This document shows positions 7,271 to 59,195 of a DNA stretch of 64,000 bases, in pieces. The notes beneath the pieces are model-generated. The model was given only the letters and a program-made list of their open reading frames with translations, was not told the origin of the DNA and did no database searches. The stretch's first letter is position 1, and each line of letters begins with the position of its first letter. This DNA comes from Deltaproteobacteria bacterium. GTDB lineage: Bacteria; Desulfobacterota; Syntrophobacteria; BM002. Made by a program: the position numbers and the translations under genes. The DNA lies in the NCBI GenBank assembly GCA_019309045.1, contig JAFDGZ010000002.1, positions 79,435 through 143,434 on the forward strand. The letters are read 5' to 3'.

Positions 7271-7999
7271 CAAGGAGCAGCTTTGATACAGGAAGCCATA
7301 GCAAAACCTCAGTCAAGCCGCAGGCGGGCAATCCTGAAGGTGTCCTTTCTGGCTCTCTTCATAGTTACTGCTCTCATTATCGTGCGGTTCACGTCCATAA
7401 GGGATTATCTCACGGCTGACTCTCTGCAGTATTTCCTTGACAGGACGGGTTTCTGGGCCCCGGTCGCCTTCATTATTGTCTATGCGGTGGGCGTCTGCCT
7501 CTTTGTTCCTGGTACAGTGCTCACTGGACTGGGAGCGGCAATTTTTGGGCCATACTGGGGCTTCCTTTATGTGTGGCTCGGTGCAATGGCCGGGGCTACA
7601 ATGGCCTTTTTCATAAGCTGGAGCCTCGGCAGGGAGTTTGCCTCTTCCCTGGCCGGCAACAGGCTGAGGAAATACGATGAGGCCATTGAACGCAACGGCT
7701 TTGCCACGGTGCTCTACCTGCGGCTGGTCTATTTCCCCTTTACCCCGATGAATTTTGGCATGGGGCTGACAAGGGTGCGATTCTGGGACTACTTCTTCGG
7801 TACTGGCCTGGGAATCGTGGTGGGCACCTTTATTTTCACCTTTTTCATTGGCAACTTGAGGGAGATCTGGGCCCGGGGTGACTGGAGCGCGCTGTTTTCG
7901 GTAAAGATCTTCTTTTCAGTGGCGCTGTTCATTTTTTCCTTTTTCATCCCAAAGATCATCAAAAGAATAAAAAAAGAAGACAAGCAGATTACCTCTTGA
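7259..7999 (+). CDS. TVP38/TMEM64 (DedA superfamily) membrane protein
   Basis: Motifs FVPGTVLTGLGAAIFGPYWGF and YLRLVYFPFTPMNFGMGLT; multiple TM helices. Non-ATG start: GTG 7259, or TTG 7281 preceded by AGGAG. Confidence 0.8.
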   Translation: MGFSQGAALIQEAIAKPQSSRRRAILKVSFLALFIVTALIIVRFTSIRDYLTADSLQYFLDRTGFWAPVAFIIVYAVGVCLFVPGTVLTGLGAAIFGPYWGFLYVWLGAMAGATMAFFISWSLGREFASSLAGNRLRKYDEAIERNGFATVLYLRLVYFPFTPMNFGMGLTRVRFWDYFFGTGLGIVVGTFIFTFFIGNLREIWARGDWSALFSVKIFFSVALFIFSFFIPKIIKRIKKEDKQITS

Positions 8000-8435
8000 G
8001 GTGGCTCTGCTCATCTGCGCCAGCCTGCAGCTGCACAGGAAGTAACCATGAATTGGCAACAGGGCAGTCAGGCCTGCTGGAGCTGCAGGTGCTCGGGGTC
8101 GACTTGCGAGTACAGTAGGCAGCAACGCTGAAGGTCATTTGCTTGCCGAGGAAGCCCTATTATTGCCGTTATGGGTCAGAACTTTCCTGAGAAAGGGCTG
8201 CCAGAGAACGGTTTCATATAACCGAAACAGCGATGGGCAGCAGCCGTCAAACTTGCACCACAGATTAAGGGGGTGCAGGAAGTGTTGCAGTCTCGTTCTC
8301 ATAGGGGATGCTCCCAGTTTTACAGAGAGCAGTGCAGGAGCAGTGCCACATTGGGTAAAATGTGCAACCATATGTGATTATTGAGTTTATTGTCATAGAA
8401 GCAACAGGAAGCTCGCTAGAGACAAGGGCAGGATT

Positions 8436-8469
8436 GGCCTTTTGACCTAATGAATTTGGCCAAAAGGTC
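8436..8469 (-). terminator. stem-loop immediately downstream of the aap operon stop (GGCCTTTTGACC ... GGCCAAAAGGTC), no clear U-tract
   Basis: An 11/12 paired imperfect inverted repeat 9 nt past the stop of the ABC ATPase gene. Confidence 0.3.
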
Positions 8470-8477
8470 AGCTGGAG

Positions 8478-9245
8478 TCAGTGCAGAATCTGGCTGAGAA
8501 AGAGCTTGGTTCTTTCATGCTGCGGGTGGTGAAAGAATTCTTCGGGAGTGTTTTCTTCCAGAATCTGGCCAAAATCCATAAACAGCACTCTGTGGGCAGC
8601 GCTCTTGGCAAAACCCATCTCGTGGGAGACCACTATCATGGTCATGCCCTCTCTGGCCAGATCGATCATTACGTCCAGGACCTCTTTTATCATTTCTGGA
8701 TCAAGGGCAGATGTGGGCTCATCAAAGAGCATGATCTTGGGTTTCATGCACAGGCTGCGAGCAATGGCCACGCGCTGCTGCTGTCCTCCGGAGAGCTGTC
8801 CGGGATATTTGTGGGCCTGGTCCGCAATGTGTACCTTTTCAAGAAAGTACATGGCTGTTTCTTCAGCCTCGGCCTTGGGCACCTTGCGCACCCATATGGG
8901 CCCGAGGGTCAGGTTCTCCAGGATGGTGAGGTGGGGAAAGAGGTTGAAATGTTGGAAGACCATGCCCACTTCTTCTCGTATCTTTTCAATATTTTTCAAA
9001 TCGTTGGTCAGTTCAGTGCCGTCGACAATGATACGGCCGCGCTGGTGTTCCTCCAGCCGGTTGATGCAGCGAATCAGGGTAGACTTGCCGGAGCCGGAAG
9101 GACCGCAAATAATTACCCGCTCACCCCTGTGCACAGTGAGATTGATGTCCTTCAGTACGTGAAAATCACCGAACCACTTGTGCATGCGAATGATCTGCAC
9201 CATTGGTACTGGAGCAGCCTGCTTTTCCTTCACCTCTTCGTTCAT
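8478..9245 (-). CDS. aapP: polar/general L-amino-acid ABC transporter ATP-binding protein
   Basis: Walker [10 protein letters not shown], signature [13 protein letters not shown], Walker [12 protein letters not shown], plus the [15 protein letters not shown] amino-acid-ABC N-terminus. Confidence 0.9.
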
Positions 9246-9324
9246 CCAAGTCTCTTTTCTTGCCTATTGGTTACTCAGAGCATGGTTCTGAGTGTACAGG
9301 AATCTCAGTGCTATTATAGCCCGA

Positions 9325-49106: not shown

Positions 49107-51008
49107 TCAGCGTGCTGTGAGGTTGTAGCAGAGAATAATGCTCTTTTCTTCGCCCAGGATGCTCTTGATGCCTGCTGACTGCTTGGCGCAGAGGATCAAC
49201 TCCTGTATGCCGTCGCCATTTAGATCGCCGACCTGGAAGCTGCTTATATCTCCCTCGATATCGCCGGTTTTCCAGTTTTCCAGCATGCCGCTGCCGCTCC
49301 ACGTCAGAGAGAGAATTTCACTCTTGCGGTACTGGCGGCTGCCGGTGAGCTGGGCAAAGCCCGGTATGTTGTGAACAACGATCACCTCGAGTCGGCCGTC
49401 GCCGTCCAGGTCAGTGAGGAGAGCTGAGGATGTAAGGTATATGAAGTGGTAGCCTTCTTCTTCAACTGTGAATTGAGCGAAACGGCCGGATTCACCTGCT
49501 ATATCGTCACTTGGCTGCGGCACTTCCCTTGCGGGTATTTCCACTTCCAGGTAATTTTCAGTGGTGGCGTAGGATTCTGTGCTGCGCCAGATGAGTTGGC
49601 GGTAGGCATCGTAGAGCAGCAAGTACCTCTTGGAGTTGATCACAAGGGTTTCTATGGACTGCTGACCGGTGATGCCTCCCCTGATGCTGTTGAAGATATT
49701 GGCGCCTTCTGGGAATGACAGCTCGCCAACTGCCTGGAGGCTGCCCTTCTGCCAGGCCAGGCTATAGATTTCCGGCAAGAGGGCGCCGCGGTCGCTGCTC
49801 TTCTGACCCCAGAGCTCTGTGGCCTCACCGGCAATACGAACTGCCCGAAGGTAATAATTCACCTCGTCTACAATAGTCGCAAATTTTTCACCATCCCACT
49901 CGAGGACATAGGATGAAGCTATCATTTTAATGCTGCTCAGCTTCTTTTGGCCGGTGAGGTAGATCTCTTCCCGACCATTGTGATTCAGATCTGCCACAGA
50001 CACCCAGACAAGCCGCCTGAACTTGGCCACAGGTAGTTCAGCCATTGGCACGAGCCTTCCCTGTGAATAGGCATAGATATAAACAGCATGCCGGCTAATG
50101 GCTGCCAGCTTATAAGAGCCGTCGCCAAGCAAGTCGCCGCCGGCCATACTTACTGGGGCATAGCCCAGCACTTGACTCTGCCATGGAGTTGCCTGGGGTG
50201 CCAGTGGAGCTATTGCTGATGCCTGGGGACTAATTTTGCTGCTTACCGGTTTTTCCTGGATCAGCTGCTGCTTGATAGAGGCCAGTTTCTCAGCCGGAGC
50301 CATATGCTGCGGCTGCGGTGGGGCTTGAAGCTGGCCAGGTTCGGCCTTTGCTCTTTGCTGTTGAGCTTGTGCTGGCGGAGACGCTGGTGAAGAAGCTATG
50401 GCTGGAGGTGGCGGCGGTGCCGGAGTCAAAACTTTCGGGCTAACTGCGGCCTGAGATGAAATAGCGGCGAAACCCTTGGCGCTAATATTATCAGCCACCT
50501 GACTGAACCTGGAAAGAAGACTGTCCCTGTCTTCAACGATGGCAGAGAGAGTATAAGGTGGTGTACCCGGATCTCTGCCATAGACCTTAAAGTCAATGCT
50601 GCCGCCCTGGCCAAAGAAGGTGAGGCTGCCAGAGACGAGGTAAGCCGCATCCACCTTGGCCAGCAGCTCCCTAGCTGTTGTTTCGTTCAGATTTTTTCTG
50701 AAGCGTTTAAAGGCCTTCAGCAGTGTATTGGCATCCACGATCTCCACATTGCGGTTGGCCGCAATGCGAGAGGTGAGCATATCCATGAGGCCGGCTTGCA
50801 GGTAGCTCATATCTTCTGGCGCATGAATTTGCACCGGAAGAATAGCGACTCGAAGCCGTTCAGCTGCCCCAGATGGCGCCTGCGGACCGAAGAGCAGGAG
50901 CAAGAGGGCAGCAGAGAGGAGGATGGTCAACTTGTGGTGAAGCTTCGGACTGCCTGGGAGTCGCTGGAACACAGAGACGAGCTTGCTGCTAGAGAGTCTG
51001 TTGCGCAT
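49107..51008 (-). CDS. secreted FG-GAP/VCBS-like repeat protein with N-terminal LpoB/TolB-N-like domain and Pro/Gln-rich linker
   Basis: Signal peptide; N-terminal domain RVAILPVQIHAPEDMSYLQAGLMDMLTSRI; linker PPPPPAIASSPASPP...PPQPQ; repeated DLNGDG / DLDGDG Ca-binding-like FG-GAP motifs. Confidence 0.65.
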   Translation of the reverse strand: MRNRLSSSKLVSVFQRLPGSPKLHHKLTILLSAALLLLLFGPQAPSGAAERLRVAILPVQIHAPEDMSYLQAGLMDMLTSRIAANRNVEIVDANTLLKAFKRFRKNLNETTARELLAKVDAAYLVSGSLTFFGQGGSIDFKVYGRDPGTPPYTLSAIVEDRDSLLSRFSQVADNISAKGFAAISSQAAVSPKVLTPAPPPPPAIASSPASPPAQAQQQRAKAEPGQLQAPPQPQHMAPAEKLASIKQQLIQEKPVSSKISPQASAIAPLAPQATPWQSQVLGYAPVSMAGGDLLGDGSYKLAAISRHAVYIYAYSQGRLVPMAELPVAKFRRLVWVSVADLNHNGREEIYLTGQKKLSSIKMIASSYVLEWDGEKFATIVDEVNYYLRAVRIAGEATELWGQKSSDRGALLPEIYSLAWQKGSLQAVGELSFPEGANIFNSIRGGITGQQSIETLVINSKRYLLLYDAYRQLIWRSTESYATTENYLEVEIPAREVPQPSDDIAGESGRFAQFTVEEEGYHFIYLTSSALLTDLDGDGRLEVIVVHNIPGFAQLTGSRQYRKSEILSLTWSGSGMLENWKTGDIEGDISSFQVGDLNGDGIQELILCAKQSAGIKSILGEEKSIILCYNLTAR

Positions 51009-51208: not shown

Positions 51209-52621
51209 TCAGTTCGTCTCGACATCTTCGTGCTGGTGCCGGGCGCACACAGGGGGCTGTGGCCCAGTCGCTGCTGCAACCGCTGACCCCATGGGGTCAT
51301 TGGCAAAGAGTAGTTTTTTGATGCTGTAATCTTTGAGAGCCTCCTCAACGGCACGATCTATGCGGTCGACAATGCGCTCAACGGCCTCTTCAGCAACCAG
51401 AGTTTGCAAGTGAGAGTATGAGTTCTCTCCTCCTGCAGCAGCAGCGTCGAGCACATCTTTGAGCCCCACGGTCTCCAGAGGCTGGGCAGGGAGGTAACAG
51501 CAGGGTTCGCTCCCCGTCTGAGTCAAGAGGCCGTGTTCTTGCAGGGATTCGAGGATAGATTCCACGGCTGCAGTTGTCAAAGAGAGGTGGCTGGCGAGTT
51601 GGTCAGCGGTCCATGGAGACTTGCGCTCATAGTAGTTTCGGGCAATCAACAGCATTATCAATAAAGAGAGCTTCTGTTGCAAACGAGGACTCAGTTTGAT
51701 CTCCCCATGGTAGGGTGACAAGGACTCCGGGTGCTGGTGATAGAAGGCAACCGCTGCACCTACCAGAAGGATCAGCCAGCTCAAATAGAGCCAGATCATA
51801 AACATAATGAGAATGGCGAAGCCCGAGTAGATTGCAGTGTATTTTGTAGACTTGACAACAAACGAAGCAAACAACCAGCCTGTACCCTGCCACAACACGC
51901 CAGCTGTTACAGCGCCGACAATGGCAGAGCGCAAACGCACTTTGGTGTTCGGTACAAATAAATAGACGAAGGTAAAGGCAGCAATGATAAATAAATAAGG
52001 AAGCAGTTCAGTCGAGGTGACCAGCAAAGTACCCAGAGGTTCAATGGTCATCAGTTTGCGAACAATGGTTGTAGACATGAAAGAAGCGGTGAGGCCAATG
52101 GCGGCGAACACCAGCAGAGGGCCAATGGCAATAACACTCAAATAGTCGCTGAAGCGTTGCAGCATTGAGCGCGTCTTTTTTACCCGCCAGGTGTGGTTGA
52201 AAGCGCGTTCAATTTTCTGAATCAGAGAAATAACGGTGTAAATAAGCAGTGCCAGCCCAAGAGAGCCGAGCACACCAGCCTTGATATTGTCCACGAAGCC
52301 GATTATCCGGTTGCTGATCTCGACGCCTTTTTCTCCCAGTGGCTTCAGAAAGTTGAGGAGCAGAGGTTCGATCTGGTTGTGCACGCCAAAGCCTTTCAGG
52401 ATGGCAAAGCTTACAGCTAGCAGGGGCACCAGGGCCAGCAGCGTGGTGTACACCAGACTCATGGCTCTCAGGGTAATCTGGCCTTCGAGGATATCCCGGG
52501 CCACCACGTAGCCCAGGCGGCATATCTTGAGCAGCCTTGAGTGCCACCAGGGAAGAGTGTCCAGGTCTGCGCTCCAGAGGAGCCGCTGAGCTCTTTTTGA
52601 CAACTGCTCGGCAAGCACCAT
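51209..52621 (-). CDS. YihY/BrkB family inner-membrane protein with ~150-aa C-terminal cytoplasmic extension
   Basis: YihY core (LRAMSLVYTTLLALVPLLAVSFAIL...FNHTWRVKK) with 6 TM helices. Confidence 0.85.
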   Translation of the reverse strand: MVLAEQLSKRAQRLLWSADLDTLPWWHSRLLKICRLGYVVARDILEGQITLRAMSLVYTTLLALVPLLAVSFAILKGFGVHNQIEPLLLNFLKPLGEKGVEISNRIIGFVDNIKAGVLGSLGLALLIYTVISLIQKIERAFNHTWRVKKTRSMLQRFSDYLSVIAIGPLLVFAAIGLTASFMSTTIVRKLMTIEPLGTLLVTSTELLPYLFIIAAFTFVYLFVPNTKVRLRSAIVGAVTAGVLWQGTGWLFASFVVKSTKYTAIYSGFAILIMFMIWLYLSWLILLVGAAVAFYHQHPESLSPYHGEIKLSPRLQQKLSLLIMLLIARNYYERKSPWTADQLASHLSLTTAAVESILESLQEHGLLTQTGSEPCCYLPAQPLETVGLKDVLDAAAAGGENSYSHLQTLVAEEAVERIVDRIDRAVEEALKDYSIKKLLFANDPMGSAVAAATGPQPPVCARHQHEDVETN

Positions 52622-52911: not shown

Positions 52912-55479
52912 ATGATGATAACCGAGAGACCCCTCTTTTCCTGGGCGCTGAAATATAATCGTGGGCTTCAGGGGCTACTTGTCTTGCTTATTGTGGTGGC
53001 GGTGTTCTTACGTGTCTTGCCCCTGGAAATGCAGAAGCGCATAGTCAACACTGCCATTGGCCTGGAGGATCTTCACGCCCTTTTCATATACTGCGGCTTT
53101 TACCTGGCGGCAGTGGTACTGGCAGGATTGCTGAAATATGTAATCAATGTACTGCAAGGCTATATTGGTCAAAAAGTGCTTTTCGAAATGCGCACCCAAC
53201 TATACGATCACATTCTCCAGCTGCCACTTCCCTTTTTTCGCAAAACACCGGCTGGCATGGTGATCAGTTCGCTAACTTCAGAGCTTGCCTCGGTGGGTGT
53301 CTTTCTGGGAAGTGCCCTGGCCGTGCCAATAATCAATGGGCTTACCCTTCTTGCCTTTGCCGGCTATATGCTGCACCTCAATCCTCTGCTGGCAGTGGTG
53401 AGCCTGTCAATCTATCCGCTGGAGATTCTAGTGATCCCAGTGCTGCAGAAACGTTTCAATGAACTAAATCGCGACCGCGTGGATACAACCAGACTATTCA
53501 GCAATGTGATCGGTGAAGCTGTCTCCGGCATCCACGAGGTTCACGGCAATGGCAGTTACCCGATTGAGAACGAGAAATTTGGCCGCCAGGCAGCCAGACT
53601 CTTCAATCTACGGCACCGGATGAACATCTACAAGTTTGGCATCAAGTTCACCAACAACTTTTTCCAGAATATGGGCCCTTTCATTCTTTTCCTGCTCGGT
53701 GGTTACCTCGCCATCGAAGGACGCTTTGACCTTGGCGCCCTGGTGGCGTTTCTCTCTGCCTATGAAAAGCTCTATGATCCATGGAAGGAGCTCATGGATT
53801 ACTATCAGGCCTTTCAGGACAGCCGGGTGCGATATCGCCGTGTTATGGAGTACTTCGAGGGACGACCCGAATTTGTTCTGAAGCCGACAGGCCGCAAGCC
53901 CTATGAACTCCAGGGCGCCATAGAGGTGCAAGATCTCAGTTACCTGGTAGACGAAAACACCACACTGCTGGAAGGAGTTTCCCTGTCCGTGCAGCCGGGA
54001 GAACAGCTGGCAGTAGTGGGATTTTCTGGCAGCGGCAAGAGCACCCTGGCCATGATCCTTGGGCAACTCTATTCGTACCATCGCGGGCACGTGCTCATTG
54101 ACGGCACAGAACTGAAGGGGCTGAGCAAACTGGATGTGAATGAGAACGTGGGCTACATCAGCCAGTTTCCCTTTATTTTCGAAGGCACCATCCGCGAGAA
54201 TCTTCTTTATGGCTGCCAGGCACTCGTGCTGGCAGAAGCGGGGAGCGCCAGGGCACTGCCTGATTATAATAGGGTGCTGGAACTCGTCCATCAGGTGGGC
54301 CTTGCTGATGATGTGCTGCGCTTTGGGCTCAACACCGTATTGTCCCATGAGTATGATCGGGACCTGGTGAGCCGTCTCATCAAAGTACGGCTCCTGTTTC
54401 ACCAGCGCTGGGCTGAGGCGCTGGCCCAGCAGGTGGAATTTTTTGATCTGCACCAGTATATGCGGGAGTGCAGCGTCCGCCGCAACATTCTTTTTGGAGA
54501 GCCCTTGCGAGAAGATTTTGAATTCGAGCGATTACCTACCAATCAGGTTTTTCGGAATTTTCTCTCGGAAGTGGAGCTCATTGAGCCACTGCTAAGCCTC
54601 GGTATAAATCTGGCCAAGCAGACAGTGTTACTGCTGCGAGACCTGGGCGATGACGCCTTCTTTTTTGAGGCAAGCCCCATACCCCGAGAACAGCTTCCCA
54701 GGTACAGTCAGCTGGTGGATCGGTTGACGCGTGAAGGAAAACAACCGCTCTCATCAGAAGATGAAAGGCTGCTGCTCTTGCTGGCTCTCCATTTTACCCC
54801 TGCACGCCATAAAATGGTGGCCCTGTCCGAAGAACTGGAGAAGCGCATTCTGGCAGCGCGCCTGCAGTTTATCGCCAACATTGGCAAGCAGGATCTGAGT
54901 AGATGCTACCTGGGCATAGACGGCATGAGCCATCCGGAACTGATGGACCCGGAGAAAAGACAAGCTTCCCCTGATTTTATGTTCTACTGTCCGTTCGAGT
55001 TCCTTTATGGGCAGAGTATTCTGAACAATGTACTCTTCGGTCGGGTAAAGCGTGATCAACCGGATGCCCTAGAAGAGGTGCAGCGGCTGGTTGTGCAACT
55101 GCTGGAAGAGGAGAACCTTCTGGAGAAGATTCTAGATCTCGGCCTCGACTTCCAGGTGGGCAGCAAGGGAGATCGTCTTTCCGGGGGGCAGAAGCAGAAG
55201 ATTGCCCTGGCGCGTGGCCTTTTGAAGGACCCCCACATTCTCATACTCGATGAGGCCACAGCGAGCCTGGACAACACTTCGCAGGCGAGAGTCCAGGAAT
55301 TGCTGAAGACACAACTGCGAGGGAAGACTACGGTGGTTGCTGTGGTCCATCGTCTGGACATGGTGCAAGATTACGACCAGATTGTCCTGTTGAAAACAGG
55401 CAAAATAGCAGAAATAGGCACATATAAGGATCTGATGGCCCGCAAAGGAGCATTTTATGAACTCGTTCAAGGAAACTGA
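52912..55479 (+). CDS. ABC exporter (TMD-NBD fusion) with ~330-aa insertion and repeated Q-loop-like motifs inside the NBD
   Basis: 6-TM ABC_membrane domain; Walker A GFSGSGKST; Q-loop region TIRENLLYG, then SVRRNILFG and SILNNVLFG repeats; signature LSGGQKQKIALARGLL; Walker B ILILDEATASLD; H-loop VVAVVHRL. Confidence 0.85.
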   Translation: MMITERPLFSWALKYNRGLQGLLVLLIVVAVFLRVLPLEMQKRIVNTAIGLEDLHALFIYCGFYLAAVVLAGLLKYVINVLQGYIGQKVLFEMRTQLYDHILQLPLPFFRKTPAGMVISSLTSELASVGVFLGSALAVPIINGLTLLAFAGYMLHLNPLLAVVSLSIYPLEILVIPVLQKRFNELNRDRVDTTRLFSNVIGEAVSGIHEVHGNGSYPIENEKFGRQAARLFNLRHRMNIYKFGIKFTNNFFQNMGPFILFLLGGYLAIEGRFDLGALVAFLSAYEKLYDPWKELMDYYQAFQDSRVRYRRVMEYFEGRPEFVLKPTGRKPYELQGAIEVQDLSYLVDENTTLLEGVSLSVQPGEQLAVVGFSGSGKSTLAMILGQLYSYHRGHVLIDGTELKGLSKLDVNENVGYISQFPFIFEGTIRENLLYGCQALVLAEAGSARALPDYNRVLELVHQVGLADDVLRFGLNTVLSHEYDRDLVSRLIKVRLLFHQRWAEALAQQVEFFDLHQYMRECSVRRNILFGEPLREDFEFERLPTNQVFRNFLSEVELIEPLLSLGINLAKQTVLLLRDLGDDAFFFEASPIPREQLPRYSQLVDRLTREGKQPLSSEDERLLLLLALHFTPARHKMVALSEELEKRILAARLQFIANIGKQDLSRCYLGIDGMSHPELMDPEKRQASPDFMFYCPFEFLYGQSILNNVLFGRVKRDQPDALEEVQRLVVQLLEEENLLEKILDLGLDFQVGSKGDRLSGGQKQKIALARGLLKDPHILILDEATASLDNTSQARVQELLKTQLRGKTTVVAVVHRLDMVQDYDQIVLLKTGKIAEIGTYKDLMARKGAFYELVQGN

Positions 55480-55990
55480 GAGTCAAACAAGAGCAGCAGC
55501 GGACGGCGAAAAAAGCGAGCTCGAGAAAGACCTGCAGGTGCTGCGCAATGTCCCTGCCTTTTCAGTGGTTCCTCTTGAAACCCTCAGACTCTATGCCTAC
55601 CTGAGCAGGCGGCTCTGCTATCGCCAGGGAACTTTCTTGTTTCGCCAGGATGAACCTGACTCCAGGGGTTATATTCTGGTTTCTGGCACTGCTCAATTAC
55701 TCAGAGAATACCCTGATCGCACGGTTGAACTGCAGGTGCTGAAAGAGGGAGATTTCTTTGGAGGTCTGGCTTTGCTGGCGGACATCAGGAGACTGTTTTC
55801 AGCCAGGGCTCTTACTACTGTGGAGTGTCTGACCCTGGACCGAGAGAGTTTTCGCAGACTGCTCAAGCAATTTCCGGAGGTGGGGATCAAGGTATTGGAG
55901 GTAATGGTCAACCGCGTGGTAAAGATGCAGGCGAGAGTATTGGAGGAATGCAGCAAGTATTCTGAGTACGGCAACATGAGCGTTGATTAA
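55457..55990 (+). CDS. stand-alone cyclic-nucleotide-binding (cNMP/CAP effector) domain protein, no HTH
   Basis: cNMP beta-barrel motifs FRQDEPDSRGYILVSGTAQL and GDFFGGLALL, with no DNA-binding domain. Overlaps the ABC gene by 23 nt. Confidence 0.8.
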   Translation: MNSFKETESQTRAAADGEKSELEKDLQVLRNVPAFSVVPLETLRLYAYLSRRLCYRQGTFLFRQDEPDSRGYILVSGTAQLLREYPDRTVELQVLKEGDFFGGLALLADIRRLFSARALTTVECLTLDRESFRRLLKQFPEVGIKVLEVMVNRVVKMQARVLEECSKYSEYGNMSVD

Positions 55991-56411: not shown

Positions 56412-56810
56412 ATGGATGAAGTGTTGAAAAACATGACTCTGGAGTTCTTTGGCACTGGCAGCCATAAAATCTCTGCCGATAAAATGCTGGAAAAAGAAAA
56501 TGCGGTGTTTCTAGACTTGCGCTCCAGAGAAGAAGCAGAAACGATCTCCATAAGCTTGAAACACCATGCCGGTATTATTGCCAAACACATTCCTATCAAT
56601 GAACTGAGCCACAGATTGGCAGAGCTGCCCAGGGACAAATTCATTGGTGTGTTTTGTCCGGCAAACGTCCGCTCAACCATGGCATATGTCTATCTTCTCA
56701 GCAAGGGGTTCACTCAGGTGCGAATAGTCGAAGGGGGCTATGCAGGACTCACCGAGGCCATACTGCCTGGAAAGGTGTGGACACAGGTGCAGTCGAAAAA
56801 AATTGGCTAG
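56412..56810 (+). CDS. rhodanese-like sulfurtransferase domain protein
   Basis: Active-site Cys loop VFCPANVRS. Single rhodanese domain of about 130 aa. Confidence 0.8.
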   Translation: MDEVLKNMTLEFFGTGSHKISADKMLEKENAVFLDLRSREEAETISISLKHHAGIIAKHIPINELSHRLAELPRDKFIGVFCPANVRSTMAYVYLLSKGFTQVRIVEGGYAGLTEAILPGKVWTQVQSKKIG

Positions 56811-56842
56811 TATGTTTGGTCTGCTGCGAGGGAGAACTACAC

Positions 56843-57643
56843 ATGTTAAAGCTCATTATAGTTGCAGGAATCATCTTTGTTCTGGCAATAGTCATGACCA
56901 TGGCAGGCAGAGGCGGCGGCAATTTTTATGTGCTGACATTGGTCCTTGCCGGTGTTCCCATGCATCAGGCTGCCACCACCGGACAGTTCATTCTTTTCAT
57001 GACTGCCTTTGCAGCCCTTATCATCTTTCAAAAACATAAGGTCGTTTCCTGGCCTCTCGCTCTGTTTATCGGCCCGCTAACGGCCCTGGCTGCTCTGGGC
57101 GGCGGTTATCTTTCGCACTGGTTCACTGGCTTTACCTTGAAGCTGATATTTTCTGCAATGCTGGCGCTTGCCGGCATGCTGATGCTCTTTCCAGTGCGGG
57201 AGAGGACCGACCAACCAGCGGTGAAGACAAGCCTTGGCCACTGGCGCCTCAAGTCGGCGGGTGAGACCTATCTGGTCAATCTATGGGTGGCGGTGCCCAT
57301 TATAGTGCTGTCCGGTTTTGGCTCAGGTATGGTTGGGGTCTCAGGGGGATCTTTTCTGGTGCCATTAATGGTACTGGCCTGCCAGGTGCCCATGCGTACT
57401 GCTGTTGGTACGGCCTCTTCTTTGATCGGAGCCACAGCCCTGATGGGCTTTCTCGGCCACGCGGCTCAGGGCGACTTTAATCCTAAATGGGCCATACCTT
57501 TAGCTGCGGTGACCATAATTGGCGGCATTCTAGGTGGAAAATTCGCCCTCAAGACGAAGCCAAAGAGCCTTAAGATGCTCTTTGCTTATACGACGCTATT
57601 GGCCGCTCTTTTTATGTTGGTCAATGCGTTCTATAATAGATAA
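56843..57643 (+). CDS. TauE/SafE family sulfite/anion exporter
   Basis: Two 4-TM repeats with G-rich motifs (MAGRGGGNFYV ... GMVGVSGGSFLVPL). RBS GAGGGAG before ATG 56843. Confidence 0.85.
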   Translation: MLKLIIVAGIIFVLAIVMTMAGRGGGNFYVLTLVLAGVPMHQAATTGQFILFMTAFAALIIFQKHKVVSWPLALFIGPLTALAALGGGYLSHWFTGFTLKLIFSAMLALAGMLMLFPVRERTDQPAVKTSLGHWRLKSAGETYLVNLWVAVPIIVLSGFGSGMVGVSGGSFLVPLMVLACQVPMRTAVGTASSLIGATALMGFLGHAAQGDFNPKWAIPLAAVTIIGGILGGKFALKTKPKSLKMLFAYTTLLAALFMLVNAFYNR

Positions 57644-57770
57644 AAGAAGGCTTGGTTTTTTAGGCTGCAATATATACGGGAAAGGGGTGATTGAGGAAAA
57701 CAGTGGAATGAATGCAGCTTGTGTGTGGTTGACAGAAAAATCCGTCTCAAACTGAGAGAGGAGGTTTTCC

Positions 57771-59195
57771 ATGTGGCGCCGGGGTTTGATACTCATTGTG
57801 ACAGCTATGGCAGTTTTGGGTCTGTGCTGCTCAATTGCAGTGGCACAGGAGAAAAGCGTGGTTGAGGAAATCCTGGATGTTCTTCGAAGTCAGGGCCAGA
57901 TCAGTGAAGAACAATACCATGAACTCCTGCAAAAGGCACAAGCGGAGGAGGCAAAAAGGGGAGAAACTAGGCAAGGGAAAGAGATTGGCAAACAAGAGCC
58001 TCATGCGACAAAAGGAGAAGAGACAGCTGCGGCAAAAAAAACAAAGGTAGCGATACCTATGTATGGTTACTGGAAAAATGGCTTGGCTTTCGAGAGTGCC
58101 GACCGGAAGTTTACCGCCAAAATCGGTGGCAGAATTAATGTTGACGCAGGTGAGGTTGATACAGATCATGATGTAAAGAAATTTTTTGACAACCAGTTCG
58201 GCAGCGGTGTCAATTTCCGCCGAGCACGGCTGTCTTTCGAGGCTACAATCTACCATGACATTATGCTCAAGTCAGAATATGATTTCACTTCCGGGGAGAC
58301 GAAATTCAAAGACGTTTATGTGGGCATGCGTGGACTTCCCTATGTGGGCACCTTGCGGATCGGCCATCAAAAGGAACCGTTTTCTTTAGAGGAAATAATT
58401 AGCGGCAACTACGTGACTTTTATGGAAAGGGCCTTGCCGAACGGTTTTGTTCCTGACCGCAACACGGGCCTGGGTTTGAACAACACAGTGCTTGACCGAC
58501 GCATGACCTGGGCAGTAGGCGGCTTCAGGGAAACTGATAATCAGGGCAGCGGTCTGGGGAATCCTGAGAACTATAATGTAACTGCCCGGGTAACAGGTTT
58601 GCCATGGTACCGAGATAAAGGGTCTAGGCTTTTGCATCTGGGACTTTCATACAGTCACAAGTTCGTGGACAAAGGTGGCACCGTGAGATTCCGTTCGCGT
58701 CCTGAAACTCAGCTTACTAGCGAGCGCTTTGTGGACACCGGCAGCATTCTAGCGGACGATGTCGATTTACTGGCGCCTGCAGCAGCAGTGGTTTTTGGTC
58801 CACTGTCTTTTCAGGGTGAATACATCTACAGCCATGTGGATCCCAAACAAGGGAGTAGCCTTGATTTCGACGGCTACTACATTTATGGCAGCTATTTTCT
58901 TACGGGTGAACATCGTTCTTACAGCACCTCGCATGGAGCCTTCTCGCGAATAAGACCGAAGAAGAATTTTCAGCTCCACGGCGGCGGTTGGGGCGCCTGG
59001 GAAGTGGCCTTGCGGTACTCGCACATGGACTTGGATGACGAGGATGTGGAAGGCGGCAAACTGTCAGACATCACAGCCGGGCTCAACTGGTATCTCAACC
59101 CGAGTGTTCGGATCATGTTCAACTACATCCACGCCGACCTCGATCATGTGGGCGATACCAACATATATCAGTCAAGATTCCAAATTAATCTTTAG
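57771..59195 (+). CDS. OprO/OprP-like phosphate/anion-selective outer-membrane porin
   Basis: Signal peptide; Porin_O_P-like features (FRRARLSFEATIYHD..., KFKDVYVGMRGLPYVGTLRIGHQKEPFSLEE). Confidence 0.8.
   Translation: MWRRGLILIVTAMAVLGLCCSIAVAQEKSVVEEILDVLRSQGQISEEQYHELLQKAQAEEAKRGETRQGKEIGKQEPHATKGEETAAAKKTKVAIPMYGYWKNGLAFESADRKFTAKIGGRINVDAGEVDTDHDVKKFFDNQFGSGVNFRRARLSFEATIYHDIMLKSEYDFTSGETKFKDVYVGMRGLPYVGTLRIGHQKEPFSLEEIISGNYVTFMERALPNGFVPDRNTGLGLNNTVLDRRMTWAVGGFRETDNQGSGLGNPENYNVTARVTGLPWYRDKGSRLLHLGLSYSHKFVDKGGTVRFRSRPETQLTSERFVDTGSILADDVDLLAPAAAVVFGPLSFQGEYIYSHVDPKQGSSLDFDGYYIYGSYFLTGEHRSYSTSHGAFSRIRPKKNFQLHGGGWGAWEVALRYSHMDLDDEDVEGGKLSDITAGLNWYLNPSVRIMFNYIHADLDHVGDTNIYQSRFQINL

Follow-up and report, generated by a model that had tools for sequence, protein, structure and literature searches.

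Two overlapping genes in the window (the whole 64,000-nucleotide stretch of DNA that was analysed) appear to form a conserved module: a type IV (MsbA-like) exporter that is catalytically competent and presumably works as a homodimer, and a small partner with the cyclic-nucleotide-binding (CNB) fold, with an accessory domain in the exporter's NBD as the hub. We put the probability of this reading at about 0.55. Few protein modules are as conserved or as well studied as the NBDs of ABC proteins, whose helical subdomain contacts the membrane domain. A large, ancient NBD insertion made of extra helical-subdomain copies seems to have gone undescribed so far. An earlier sequence-only reading of this DNA likewise knew of no description of the architecture, and in the searchable literature we found no paper on an ABC protein with a triplicated helical subdomain and a CNB domain, HetC being the only related case (PMC10986499).

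The exporter and its enlarged NBD

The ABC half-transporter gene (52912..55479, on the forward strand, as are all features below) is one uninterrupted ORF of 855 aa, a TMD followed by an enlarged NBD, with GGGAG 7 nt upstream of its ATG and an identical protein in NCBI. The TMD (aa 1-314, 52912..53853) has the type IV exporter fold. PF00664 matches with E=2.7e-32 (113 bits against a cut-off of 28), the AF2 model has six long helices within H17-314, and Foldseek matches the transporter to PCAT1, TmrAB, TM287/288 and MsbA, with E~1e-21 to PCAT1, TmrAB and MsbA. The protein is an MsbA-like half-transporter with the six-helix TMD of type IV exporters. It scored below the cut-offs of both MsbA equivalogs (TIGR02203 and NF008381, 316.6 bits against 602 and 223.7 against 867) and of the HepA, HlyB, bacteriocin, CydDC and glucan exporter models of NCBIfam. 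Neither the peptidase nor the N-terminal CNB domain of PCAT, HetC-like and NHLM exporters was found in it, and its scores were below cut-off for TIGR03796 (256 against 853), TIGR03797 (234 against 709) and TIGR03896 (12.8 against 161, E=0.057). PADLOC gave generic ABC-ATPase and weak matches only, and membership of a defence system was rejected. A promoter and terminator scan gave counts at shuffle level.

The canonical ATPase set is complete. The N-terminal part of the NBD (aa 335-417, 53914..54162) carries Walker A, GFSGSGKST from aa 370 (nt 54019-54045), and the strand that precedes Q418, with K376, S377 and Q418 invariant in 79 loci. The C-terminal catalytic part (aa 750-855, 55159..55476), whose motif residues are also invariant in the 79 loci, holds the X-loop GSKGDR, the signature LSGGQKQK from aa 756 (LSGGQ at nt 55177-55191), Walker B ILILDE at aa 776 with its Asp-Glu (nt 55237-55254), the D-loop SLD and the H-loop His, H813. 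Across these 79 related loci the ATPase motifs are 100% conserved.

What sets the protein apart from the compact, single-helical-subdomain NBD of type IV exporters is the distance between these two parts: Walker A and LSGGQ lie 386 residues apart, against ~100-110 in a normal NBD. The sequence-only reading had recognised this enlargement and put the distance at roughly 400 residues; its motif positions (nt ~53975 for Walker A and ~55190 for the signature) shift to nt 54019 and 55177, while its figure of ~60 residues for normal NBDs was too low by the NCBIfam mapping. It had also put the insertion at ~1 kb. We delimited it with NCBIfam exporter models, positions 7-435 of which map to aa 10-439 and positions ~420-568 to aa 698-853, leaving an insertion of ~260-280 aa (aa 440-698; ~0.8 kb, nt ~54229-55005) between the Q-loop region and the X-loop and signature. 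Positions 1-96 of Pfam ABC_tran map to aa 353-466, and a sub-threshold SMC_N match spans aa 650-827.

Three recurring motifs had been noticed in this stretch and are there as described: TIRENLLYG (aa 426), SVRRNILFG (aa 521) and SILNNVLFG (aa 702). The pattern [ST][IV][RL]xN[ILV]L[FY]G had no match in 20,000 shuffles of the ABC protein, and its core N[ILV]L[FY]G, which occurs three times in the protein, had a shuffle mean of 0.011. Each motif sits in a homologous unit of ~60 aa. When family sub-alignments were compared with hhalign, copy B matched copy C with E=7e-8 to 1.3e-7 (probability 94%), copy A matched copy C with E=3.5e-7 to 3.7e-6, and A matched B with E=3.5e-4; control segments gave E>=0.014. 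These alignments support an origin of the Walker A-to-signature stretch by internal duplication of the helical-subdomain region, as had been proposed.

The copies differ in what surrounds them. Copy A (aa 418-477, 54163..54342) contains the genuine Q-loop Gln, TIRENLLYG and a pair of helices that ends in GLNTVL, with no signature motif after it; at the signature-helix position there is instead a long helix without LSGGQ (aa 478-505, 54343..54426; H483-500 in the AF2 model) that holds R493. Copy B (aa 506-568, 54427..54615) consists of VEFFD, SVRRNILFG with the invariant N525, and two helices, and has neither the Gln nor a signature. It is followed by a helical module of ~120 aa, which we call M (aa 569-686, 54616..54969), with conserved FFFExSPI and LALRFxPAxHKM, H633 and the invariant R650, and with a variable, low-confidence loop at its end (aa ~660-686). 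Copy C (aa 687-749, 54970..55158) comprises FMFYC, SILNNVLFG with the invariant N706, and two helices ending in GLDFQV, and continues straight into the X-loop and signature.

We considered whether the repeat might be larger, the entire C-terminal NBD having been copied and then degenerated into B plus M, so that FFFExSPI would be a pseudo-Walker B and H633 a pseudo-H-loop. This was rejected: hhalign aligned M with the NBD tail over 11 columns at E=0.035, and the alignment of B plus M with the stretch from C to the end stops after ~61 columns. Judged by these profiles, the repeated unit is the ~60-aa unit only. Module M showed no homology to other parts of the NBD by hhalign and had no detectable relative, including by sequence in the PDB. 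A Foldseek search with a model of the whole insertion found nothing, and no solved structure in the PDB or Foldseek searches covers the region.

The AF2 model of the full-length protein (pLDDT 85.4) is confident throughout the insertion, with most blocks at ~85-95 and falls to ~60-80 near aa 441-450, 571-600 and the 661-690 loop. When the insertion was modelled alone, copy B plus M kept values above 90 while the part from copy A collapsed, which suggests that B plus M is an autonomous domain.

More than 120 homologues, with 51-63% identity at 100% coverage, keep the insertion, and it was present in 85 of 85 related loci that were examined. Used alone as a query it retrieved 477 clusters at 50% identity. 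A locus search seeded on the family-specific TM6 region gave 264 relatives among GTDB species genomes, and every one of them has the insertion, isolate genomes included. The same site carries it in hundreds of MAGs and in the isolates Desulfonema ishimotonii, Desulfococcus, Desulfosoma caldarium, Maridesulfovibrio sp. FT414 and Solidesulfovibrio aerotolerans. Members of the family are common among sulfate reducers. R493 is kept in 231 of 232 sequences, and across the same set there is little or no variation at N525, R650 and N706. A chimeric duplication or pseudogene, produced by assembly or annotation, would have to account for these residues and this distribution as well as for an open frame and even base composition; we regard such an artefact, which the sequence-only reading had named as a possible undoing of its claim, as refuted for practical purposes.

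The CNB protein and its link to the exporter

The next gene (55457..55990) encodes a stand-alone CNB-fold protein of 177 aa. PF00027 matches aa 55-138 with 69.4 bits (gathering cut-off 27.5), and the best PDB matches are the CNB domains of PKG, PKA and SthK (E=1e-16 to 1e-11). It is the only domain: neither a DNA-binding domain nor an HTH_Crp_2 match, as would mark a CRP/FNR transcription factor, was found, and 45 of 45 CNB homologues are single-domain proteins of 141-187 aa. The databases label the two proteins 'ABC transporter ATP-binding protein/permease' and 'Crp/Fnr family transcriptional regulator', and the second label is wrong.

The two genes overlap by 23 nt, which, like the lack of a DNA-binding domain, the sequence-only reading had correctly reported. 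A Shine-Dalgarno sequence for the CNB gene, AAAGGAG (55444..55450), lies within the last ABC codons (Lys845-Gly846), 7 nt upstream of the CNB ATG. The close packing of the genes and this internal site are consistent with translational coupling. That reading had also proposed a check of the co-occurrence of the two genes, and here the association held: the CNB gene lies directly 3' of the ABC gene in 79 of 82 evaluable loci, usually overlapping it, and the adjacency extends to very distant members. Two reverse look-ups that started from CNB orthologues likewise ended next to an insertion-bearing ABC gene. Clustering of all ORFs within ±5 kb at 83 loci gave no other conserved neighbour that might hint at the substrate; the remaining large clusters consisted of antisense shadow ORFs or of genes confined to particular lineages. 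That the exported substrate is an amphipathic or lipid-linked molecule is a low-confidence guess.

Three loci have no CNB gene. In the one sublineage that lacks CNB, three insertion positions that are otherwise at least 90% conserved, F550, L575 and F585, are changed, and G846 and E850 of the ABC protein are altered only in the CNB-less subgroup. The three loci are what might be expected if the genes were mere operon neighbours, with the CNB protein acting independently of the transporter and the insertion serving a structural or other role such as oligomerisation or localisation. We consider this very unlikely, given an adjacency that persists across orders although the remaining neighbourhood changes, the gene overlap, the internal Shine-Dalgarno sequence and independent fusions in Proteobacteria. 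The adjacency in 79 of 82 loci, together with the C-terminal fusion in proteobacterial relatives, supports the CNB protein as a genuine, dedicated partner of the transporter.

The phosphate-binding cassette of the CNB protein, GDFFGGLALLADIRRLFSARA (CNB aa 98-118, 55748..55810), is degenerate when aligned with PKG and with 77 orthologues. Receptors of cAMP and cGMP (CRP, PKA-R, PKG, CNG/HCN/SthK) have Gly-Glu ... Arg-Ser/Thr; the window protein has Gly for the ribose-binding Glu and Leu for the phosphate-binding Ser/Thr, and keeps the Arg (G-G ... R-L). The alignment with PKG agrees on this loss. The equivalent of CRP Glu72 is Glu in 0 of the 77 orthologues (Gly, Ala, Tyr, Ser, Val or Thr instead) and that of Ser83 is Ser or Thr in 0 of 77, being mostly hydrophobic (Leu, Pro, Ile, Val, Phe, Ala), while the Arg82 equivalent is Arg in 57 of 77, as it is in the window protein.

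The sequence-only reading had called the small protein a plausible cNMP-dependent regulatory subunit. The part of that claim concerning a partner stands, by the adjacency and the fusions. The part concerning cNMP fares less well: control of the exporter by cNMP is doubtful, because in this lineage the Glu and Ser/Thr with which a cassette grips cAMP and cGMP are gone. The strong PF00027 match, the kinship with PKG, PKA and SthK, the retained Arg and the fully canonical FGE...PR[TS]A cassette of relatives in other phyla would all suit a protein that binds cAMP or cGMP and so makes the exporter dependent on cyclic nucleotides. With both of these contacts absent from every one of the 77 orthologues, however, we think this improbable. 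CNB folds altered in this way commonly bind other ligands, 2-oxoglutarate in NtcA and ppGpp in HetC (PMC10986499).

Fused relatives and the proposed mechanism

Proteobacterial relatives (Xanthomonadales/Lysobacterales and Rhodospirillaceae MAGs) encode TMD-NBD(insertion)-CNB fusions, some with an added GGDEF domain. They share with the window the triplicated unit, module M, invariant R493, N525, R650 and N706, and the association with CNB, but their CNB domain is fused at the C-terminus and has a canonical cNMP cassette (Glu in 129/131, Arg in 130/131, Ser/Thr in 122/131). They also have an extra segment of ~45 aa after copy A. In these fusions it is the ATPase that has decayed: Arg mostly takes the place of the Walker A Lys, 25/111 keep the Q-loop Gln and 18/111 the H-loop His, the signature reads L[ST]xxQ, and the Walker B Asp has become Asn or Ser. 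Two separate-gene relatives with a canonical cassette have degenerate ATPase motifs as well. Across the superfamily, ATPase motifs and cNMP-binding residues are thus degenerate in opposite branches. The four residues of the insertion are kept even where the ATPase motifs have decayed, and insertion residues are more conserved across the superfamily than catalytic ones.

We propose that the NBD grew as a ~60-residue unit, made of the Q-loop strand, helix 1 (xNxLFG) and helices 2-3, was duplicated internally in two rounds. Copy B and the ~120 residues of M would fold into a further domain attached to the helical subdomain. This domain, with R493, N525, H633 and R650, may be both an allosteric hub and a docking platform for the CNB subunit, which is probably a dimer through its C-terminal helix and would modulate NBD closure, and with it ATPase activity and transport. 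In the Desulfobacterota lineage the signal is probably not canonical cAMP or cGMP; the CNB protein may bind another small ligand or none, and with no ligand it would be a constitutive subunit.

The flow of information could also run the other way, in a module that is mainly a signalling device or 'transceptor': the ABC scaffold would sense its own transport cycle or a cue from the membrane or periplasm, and pass the signal through the insertion to the CNB protein and on to other targets. Relatives with a GGDEF domain and dead ATPase motifs have the architecture of a protein with an output domain, the greater conservation of the insertion than of the catalytic residues fits, and partner-switching genes (STAS, SpoIIE, HATPase_c_2) lie near some loci. 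Against it, no catalytic residue varies in the window's own lineage, which speaks for a protein that really turns over ATP and transports. The CNB protein, at 177 aa, lacks an output domain, and the nearby signalling genes are lineage-restricted. We regard a mainly signalling role as unlikely, and prefer an exporter modulated by its CNB partner.

A broader reading, which we hold to be speculative and on the unlikely side, is that the triplicated helical subdomain and CNB define a new class of ABC-fold allosteric machines in which the most constrained part is the accessory domain and not the ATP site. The Desulfobacterota branch would run on ATP, its CNB no longer reading cyclic nucleotides, and the proteobacterial branch would be driven by cNMP without ATP hydrolysis. 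If so, the proteobacterial branch would use the scaffold of an exporter as a cNMP-gated conduit or as a membrane receptor, some forms of it wired directly to c-di-GMP synthesis via GGDEF.

The opposite decay of ATPase and cNMP residues is a natural experiment in which the insertion stays nearly invariant throughout, and it offers a route to study how an ABC scaffold might switch from being ATP-driven to ligand-driven. Maridesulfovibrio, Solidesulfovibrio and Desulfococcus are tractable hosts in which to study control of export by a second-messenger-type domain in sulfate reducers.

Comparison with known systems

MsbA-type exporters are the best family and fold matches of the window transporter. 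MsbA, Sav1866, TM287/288, TmrAB and the PCAT1 core share with it a six-helix TMD followed by an NBD, canonical motifs and the exporter X-loop. Unlike them, the window protein has ~260 extra residues in its NBD, the two additional subdomain copies and M, and a near-obligate CNB partner.

Large insertions between the Q-loop and signature are found in Rad50/SMC and UvrA, soluble DNA-repair ATPases, as coiled coils or as DNA- or UvrB-binding domains. The site is topologically equivalent, but in the window it holds duplicated helical subdomains in a membrane exporter. The C-terminal domains of MalK, MetN and ModC, and the regulatory insertion and R region of CFTR, control NBD dimerisation. The logic we propose resembles theirs, with an accessory domain or subunit on the NBD controlling dimerisation, although their regulators are C-terminal appendages or disordered segments and not duplicated helical subdomains. 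To our knowledge none of the four uses a CNB-fold partner.

In HetC of Nostoc PCC 7120, an ABC exporter, a CNB-fold domain binds ppGpp in vitro and is needed for function (PMC10986499). HetC and related cyanobacterial exporters resemble the window module in tying an ABC exporter to a CNB-fold domain. The CNB domain of HetC, however, is fused at the N-terminus of a protein with a C39 peptidase and an ordinary NBD, whereas in the window it is a separate downstream protein and the exporter has a remodelled NBD and lacks a peptidase. HetC is a precedent for an ABC exporter under the control of a CNB domain with a non-cNMP ligand.

An exporter with a divided nucleotide-binding domain

The ABC gene (52912-55479, + strand) is one uninterrupted frame encoding 855 aa, with uniform GC content along its length and a GGGAG 7 nt 5' of its ATG. 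Pfam ABC_membrane matches aa 31-283, and the ABC_tran match is broken into two stretches, the first of which (aa 353-466) covers only HMM positions 1-96 of 137. The NCBIfam exporter models are broken likewise, with positions 7-435 of the MsbA model aligning to aa 10-439 and positions ~420-568 of other exporter models to aa 698-853. No exporter model approached its curated NCBIfam cut-off (MsbA scored 317 bits against 602).

The motifs themselves read as those of a type IV exporter with an intact catalytic set: Walker A (GFSGSGKST) at aa 370 (nt 54019), the Q-loop Gln at aa 418, LSGGQ at aa 756 (nt 55177), Walker B (ILILDE) at aa 776 and the H-loop His at aa 813, all on the + strand. This sets Walker A 386 residues from the signature. 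The sequence-only reading took about 60 residues as the normal spacing, which is too short, as the mapping of the exporter models implies about 100-110. The insertion amounts to ~260-280 aa (nt ~54229-55005).

A chimeric assembly had been raised as an alternative. This can be excluded, as the insertion is retained throughout the family, isolate genomes included (Desulfonema ishimotonii, Desulfococcus and Desulfosoma caldarium). NCBI holds an identical protein, encoded on a 144-kb contig of a 'Deltaproteobacteria' MAG, whose sole annotation is 'ABC transporter ATP-binding protein/permease'. The best 120 homologues show 51-63% identity across 100% of the length and nearly all have 829-874 aa, apart from a few partial sequences of ~810 aa, so the insertion has been kept. 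Scanning one genome per GTDB species with the family-specific TM6 region identified 264 relatives. By the taxon names in the record titles, the best 80 of these are Desulfobacterota (Syntrophobacteria, Desulfovibrionia and Desulfobacteria) bar three loci labelled 'Proteobacteria bacterium' and one Acidobacteriota-labelled MAG, and all ABC ORFs of the best relatives' loci carry the insertion. The insertion alone (aa 440-698) used as query found 477 clusters at 50% identity with E<=1e-3, 254 of them with E<=1e-10. The insertion defines a protein family and is not an artefact.

The three repeated motifs of the sequence-only reading were found at aa 426, 521 and 702. Shuffling the protein 20,000 times never produced their full pattern, and the core N[ILV]L[FY]G, present three times, averaged 0.011 occurrences in the shuffled sequences. 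A BLASTP self-comparison detected no internal repeat. Profile-profile comparison of sub-alignments drawn from 120 family members matched copy B (aa ~506-568) to copy C (aa ~687-749) with E = 7e-8 to 1.3e-7 (probability 92-94%), copy A (aa ~418-477) to copy C with E = 3.5e-7 to 3.7e-6, and copy A to copy B with E = 3.5e-4; the controls, module M and the N-terminal part of the NBD, gave E >=0.014 against the copies. Judged on these profiles, the internal repeat is real and ancient.

The homologous unit of ~60 residues comprises the strand and loop of the Q-loop Gln, a short helix (xNxL(F/Y)G) and a further pair of helices that finish in a Gly-Leu turn, and is thus the helical subdomain as far as the X-loop and signature, those two excluded. 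Only copy A has the Q-loop Gln, and only copy C runs on into the X-loop (GSKGDR) and LSGGQ. Between copies B and C lies module M (aa 569-686, ~120 aa), which is helical, with conserved FFFExSPI and LALRFxPAxHKM. Its profile matched no PDB sequence, and profile-profile comparison detected no relationship to the remaining NBD. The helical-subdomain region has thus been both triplicated and lengthened by a helical module.

AlphaFold2 gave a confident model of the full protein (pLDDT 85.4, pTM 0.80). Block means across the insertion are mostly ~85-95, dipping to ~60-80 near aa 441-450, aa 571-600 and a variable loop at aa ~661-690. When the insertion was modelled alone, copy B and M stayed above 90 while the copy A part fell to 42-67, which suggests that B and M form an autonomous domain and that copy A depends on the RecA core. 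A Foldseek search with the full model found only ordinary exporters of ~570 aa (PCAT1, TmrAB, TM287/288 and MsbA), matched along their entire length with the insertion left unaligned, and Foldseek of the insertion model matched no structure in the PDB.

The CNB partner and its neighbourhood

The CNB gene (55457-55990, + strand; 177 aa, PF00027 at 69.4 bits) overlaps the ABC gene by 23 nt, and its Shine-Dalgarno sequence, AAAGGAG 7 nt 5' of the ATG, lies within ABC codons Lys845-Gly846. In gene calls from six distinct genomes a cNMP_binding gene is immediately 3' of the ABC gene, usually overlapping by 26 nt. The proposed linkage held widely: a CNB gene lies directly downstream in 79 of the 82 loci with enough downstream sequence, the homologous region starting -7 to +59 nt from the ABC stop codon. 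Reverse look-ups from two CNB orthologues (Thermodesulforhabdus norvegica and a 44%-identical metagenomic protein) led back to adjoining split-NBD ABC genes of ~830 aa, and a cNMP_binding gene is likewise immediately 3' of two insertion-bearing ABC genes that are very distant (927 and 862 aa, 25-35% insertion identity). The CNB domain is fused to the C-terminus in members of ~1010-1075 aa (Xanthomonadales/Lysobacterales and Rhodospirillaceae MAGs), and in members of ~1175-1204 aa GGDEF follows it. Clustering all ORFs within ±5 kb revealed no other conserved neighbour. The partner is thus near-obligate, and the tight overlapping packing is consistent with translational coupling. The conserved overlapping adjacency and independent gene fusions are strong genomic evidence that the two proteins form a physical and functional complex.

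In several genomes the pair is present twice, as paralogues at separate loci: OY762941.1 (loci L049, L088), CAXXDT01 (L072, L077), JAAYVE01 (L040, L083), CAVUGX01 (L079, L085) and JABUEY01 (L030, L032).

The three loci without an adjoining CNB gene (L009, L010 and L013) belong to one Syntrophobacteria sublineage. At positions that are at least 90% conserved in CNB-associated members, the sublineage's only differences are F550L, L575S and F585M, which all fall in copy B or M, A767V, and changes at G846 and E850, whose codons serve at the same time as the CNB gene's Shine-Dalgarno and overlap region. The first three changes are a weak hint of a candidate CNB docking site, and a hint rather than a test because they reflect a single evolutionary event. 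In L009 a convergent 481-aa ORF (7822-9267, -) abuts the ABC stop codon; its diadenylate-cyclase-like (CdaA) and YbbR-like regions were assigned by eye from the translation, not by family search.

The neighbourhoods of the pair otherwise differ between genomes, with oxidative-stress genes among those seen outside the window. In the window, rhodanese, TauE/SafE and Porin_O_P genes lie 3' (56412-59195, +); the listed TauE/SafE ORF overlaps the rhodanese ORF, and its true start is probably later. Desulfosoma caldarium also has a rhodanese gene 3' of the pair (L002 11046-11897). On the other side of the window's pair are a YihY/BrkB-family membrane protein (51209-52621, -; PF03631 at aa 47-296), an unusual fusion with a winged-helix-like C-terminal tail (aa 318-438, weak Rrf2, IclR, TrmB and HTH_Crp_2 matches), and a 633-aa predicted lipoprotein (49107-51008, -) with FG-GAP repeats and a Pro/Ala/Gln-rich linker, which appears unrelated to the ABC-CNB finding. 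Fur, rubrerythrin and flavodiiron protein (ODP + flavodoxin) genes are divergent and immediately upstream in a Syntrophobacter MAG and Thermodesulforhabdus norvegica (L006 2978-5321, -; L092 1-2399, -). Partner-switching genes (SpoIIE phosphatase, STAS, HATPase_c_2) occur nearby in L004 (13424-15565) and L093 (837-2297, 5540-6312); STAS ORFs are present in 29 of 83 loci, and these genes are lineage-restricted, mainly to Maridesulfovibrio-type loci.

In three unrelated loci a PqqD-domain gene and two unannotated ORFs (~210-350 aa) adjoin the pair (L004/L005 11321-13410; L007 3821-5840, -; L093 6335-8595, -). PqqD typically belongs to RiPP clusters, and its presence could point to a peptide as substrate for certain lineages. 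In one Desulfobacterota-type locus and one very distant 927-aa member (L008 3525-5971, 9137-10300; L089 108-4911), the pair is flanked by glycosyltransferase clusters (Glyco_tran_28_C, GT1/GT4), which may hint at glycolipid or polysaccharide export there.

Opposite fates of the cNMP pocket and the ATP site

The sequence-only reading proposed a cNMP-dependent subunit, which is doubtful in the window's lineage. When 77 CNB orthologues were aligned to E. coli CRP, none had Glu at the ribose-binding Glu72 (Gly 53, Ala 14, Tyr 4, Ser 3, Val 1, Thr 1) and none had Ser or Thr at the phosphate-binding Ser83 (Leu 61, Pro 6, Ile 5, Val 2, Phe 2, Ala 1); the phosphate-binding Arg82 is Arg in 57, including the window's protein. 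Alignment to PKG gave identical substitutions. The pocket is degenerate in this lineage, and, judged by sequence, the window's protein is unlikely to be a receptor for cAMP or cGMP. Pfam found no HTH domain in it, so despite its CNB fold it is not a CRP/FNR transcription factor. Single-domain homologues of 165-187 aa (protein P0408 and others) are named 'Crp/Fnr family transcriptional regulator' or 'cyclic AMP receptor protein' in databases, names that are misleading given the missing DNA-binding domain and degenerate pocket.

The fused proteobacterial CNB domains have a fully canonical cassette, FGEMALL..PRTTT.RA (Glu 129/131, Arg 130/131, Ser/Thr 122/131), as do the separate CNB proteins at the two distant loci. 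The ATP site shows the reverse. K376, S377, Q418, LSGGQ, D780, E781, D787 and H813 are all invariant in 79 Desulfobacterota loci, whereas the motifs are degenerate in 111 fused relatives: Arg mostly takes the place of the Walker A Lys and is followed by Glu/Asp-Glu; the Q-loop Gln is kept in 25, with Pro, Ser or Ala in most of the others; the signature reads L[ST]xxQ; Asn or Ser replaces the Walker B Asp; and the H-loop His is kept in 18. Across three groups, N525, R650 and N706 in the insertion-bearing region are invariant in 232/232 sequences, R493 in 231/232, and H633 nearly so. Because the ATPase motifs decayed while R493, N525, R650 and N706 were kept, constraint on the insertion is stronger across the superfamily than constraint on the ATP site, and ATPase and cNMP competence, as read from residues, are kept in opposite branches.

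The relatives with GGDEF (P0323, P0328, P0332-P0338, P0347 and others; locus L091 6001-9549) combine degenerate ATPase motifs with a canonical cassette. They look like membrane receptors coupling cNMP to c-di-GMP on an ABC exporter scaffold.

A working model and comparison with known systems

We suggest that the exporter is a homodimer and that the B and M domain may act as an allosteric docking platform for the CNB subunit. The CNB protein would probably dock as a dimer, formed through its C-terminal helix as CRP-type proteins do. Through its contact with B and M it could tune NBD closure and ATP turnover. In the window's lineage the signal may be a non-cNMP ligand, or there may be none; the N-terminal CNB domain of HetC, which binds ppGpp, is a precedent for the former (PMC10986499).

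The window's ABC protein shares its fold and motifs with type IV ABC exporters, but lacks their compact NBD and scores under the cut-off of every curated exporter subfamily. The soluble ABC ATPases Rad50/SMC and UvrA also have large insertions at this topological point. In the open-access full-text literature we found no report of such an insertion in a transporter, of one built from duplicated helical subdomains, or of this ABC(insertion)-CNB architecture. Both the anatomy and its family-wide pattern should surprise ABC specialists, and they are directly testable.
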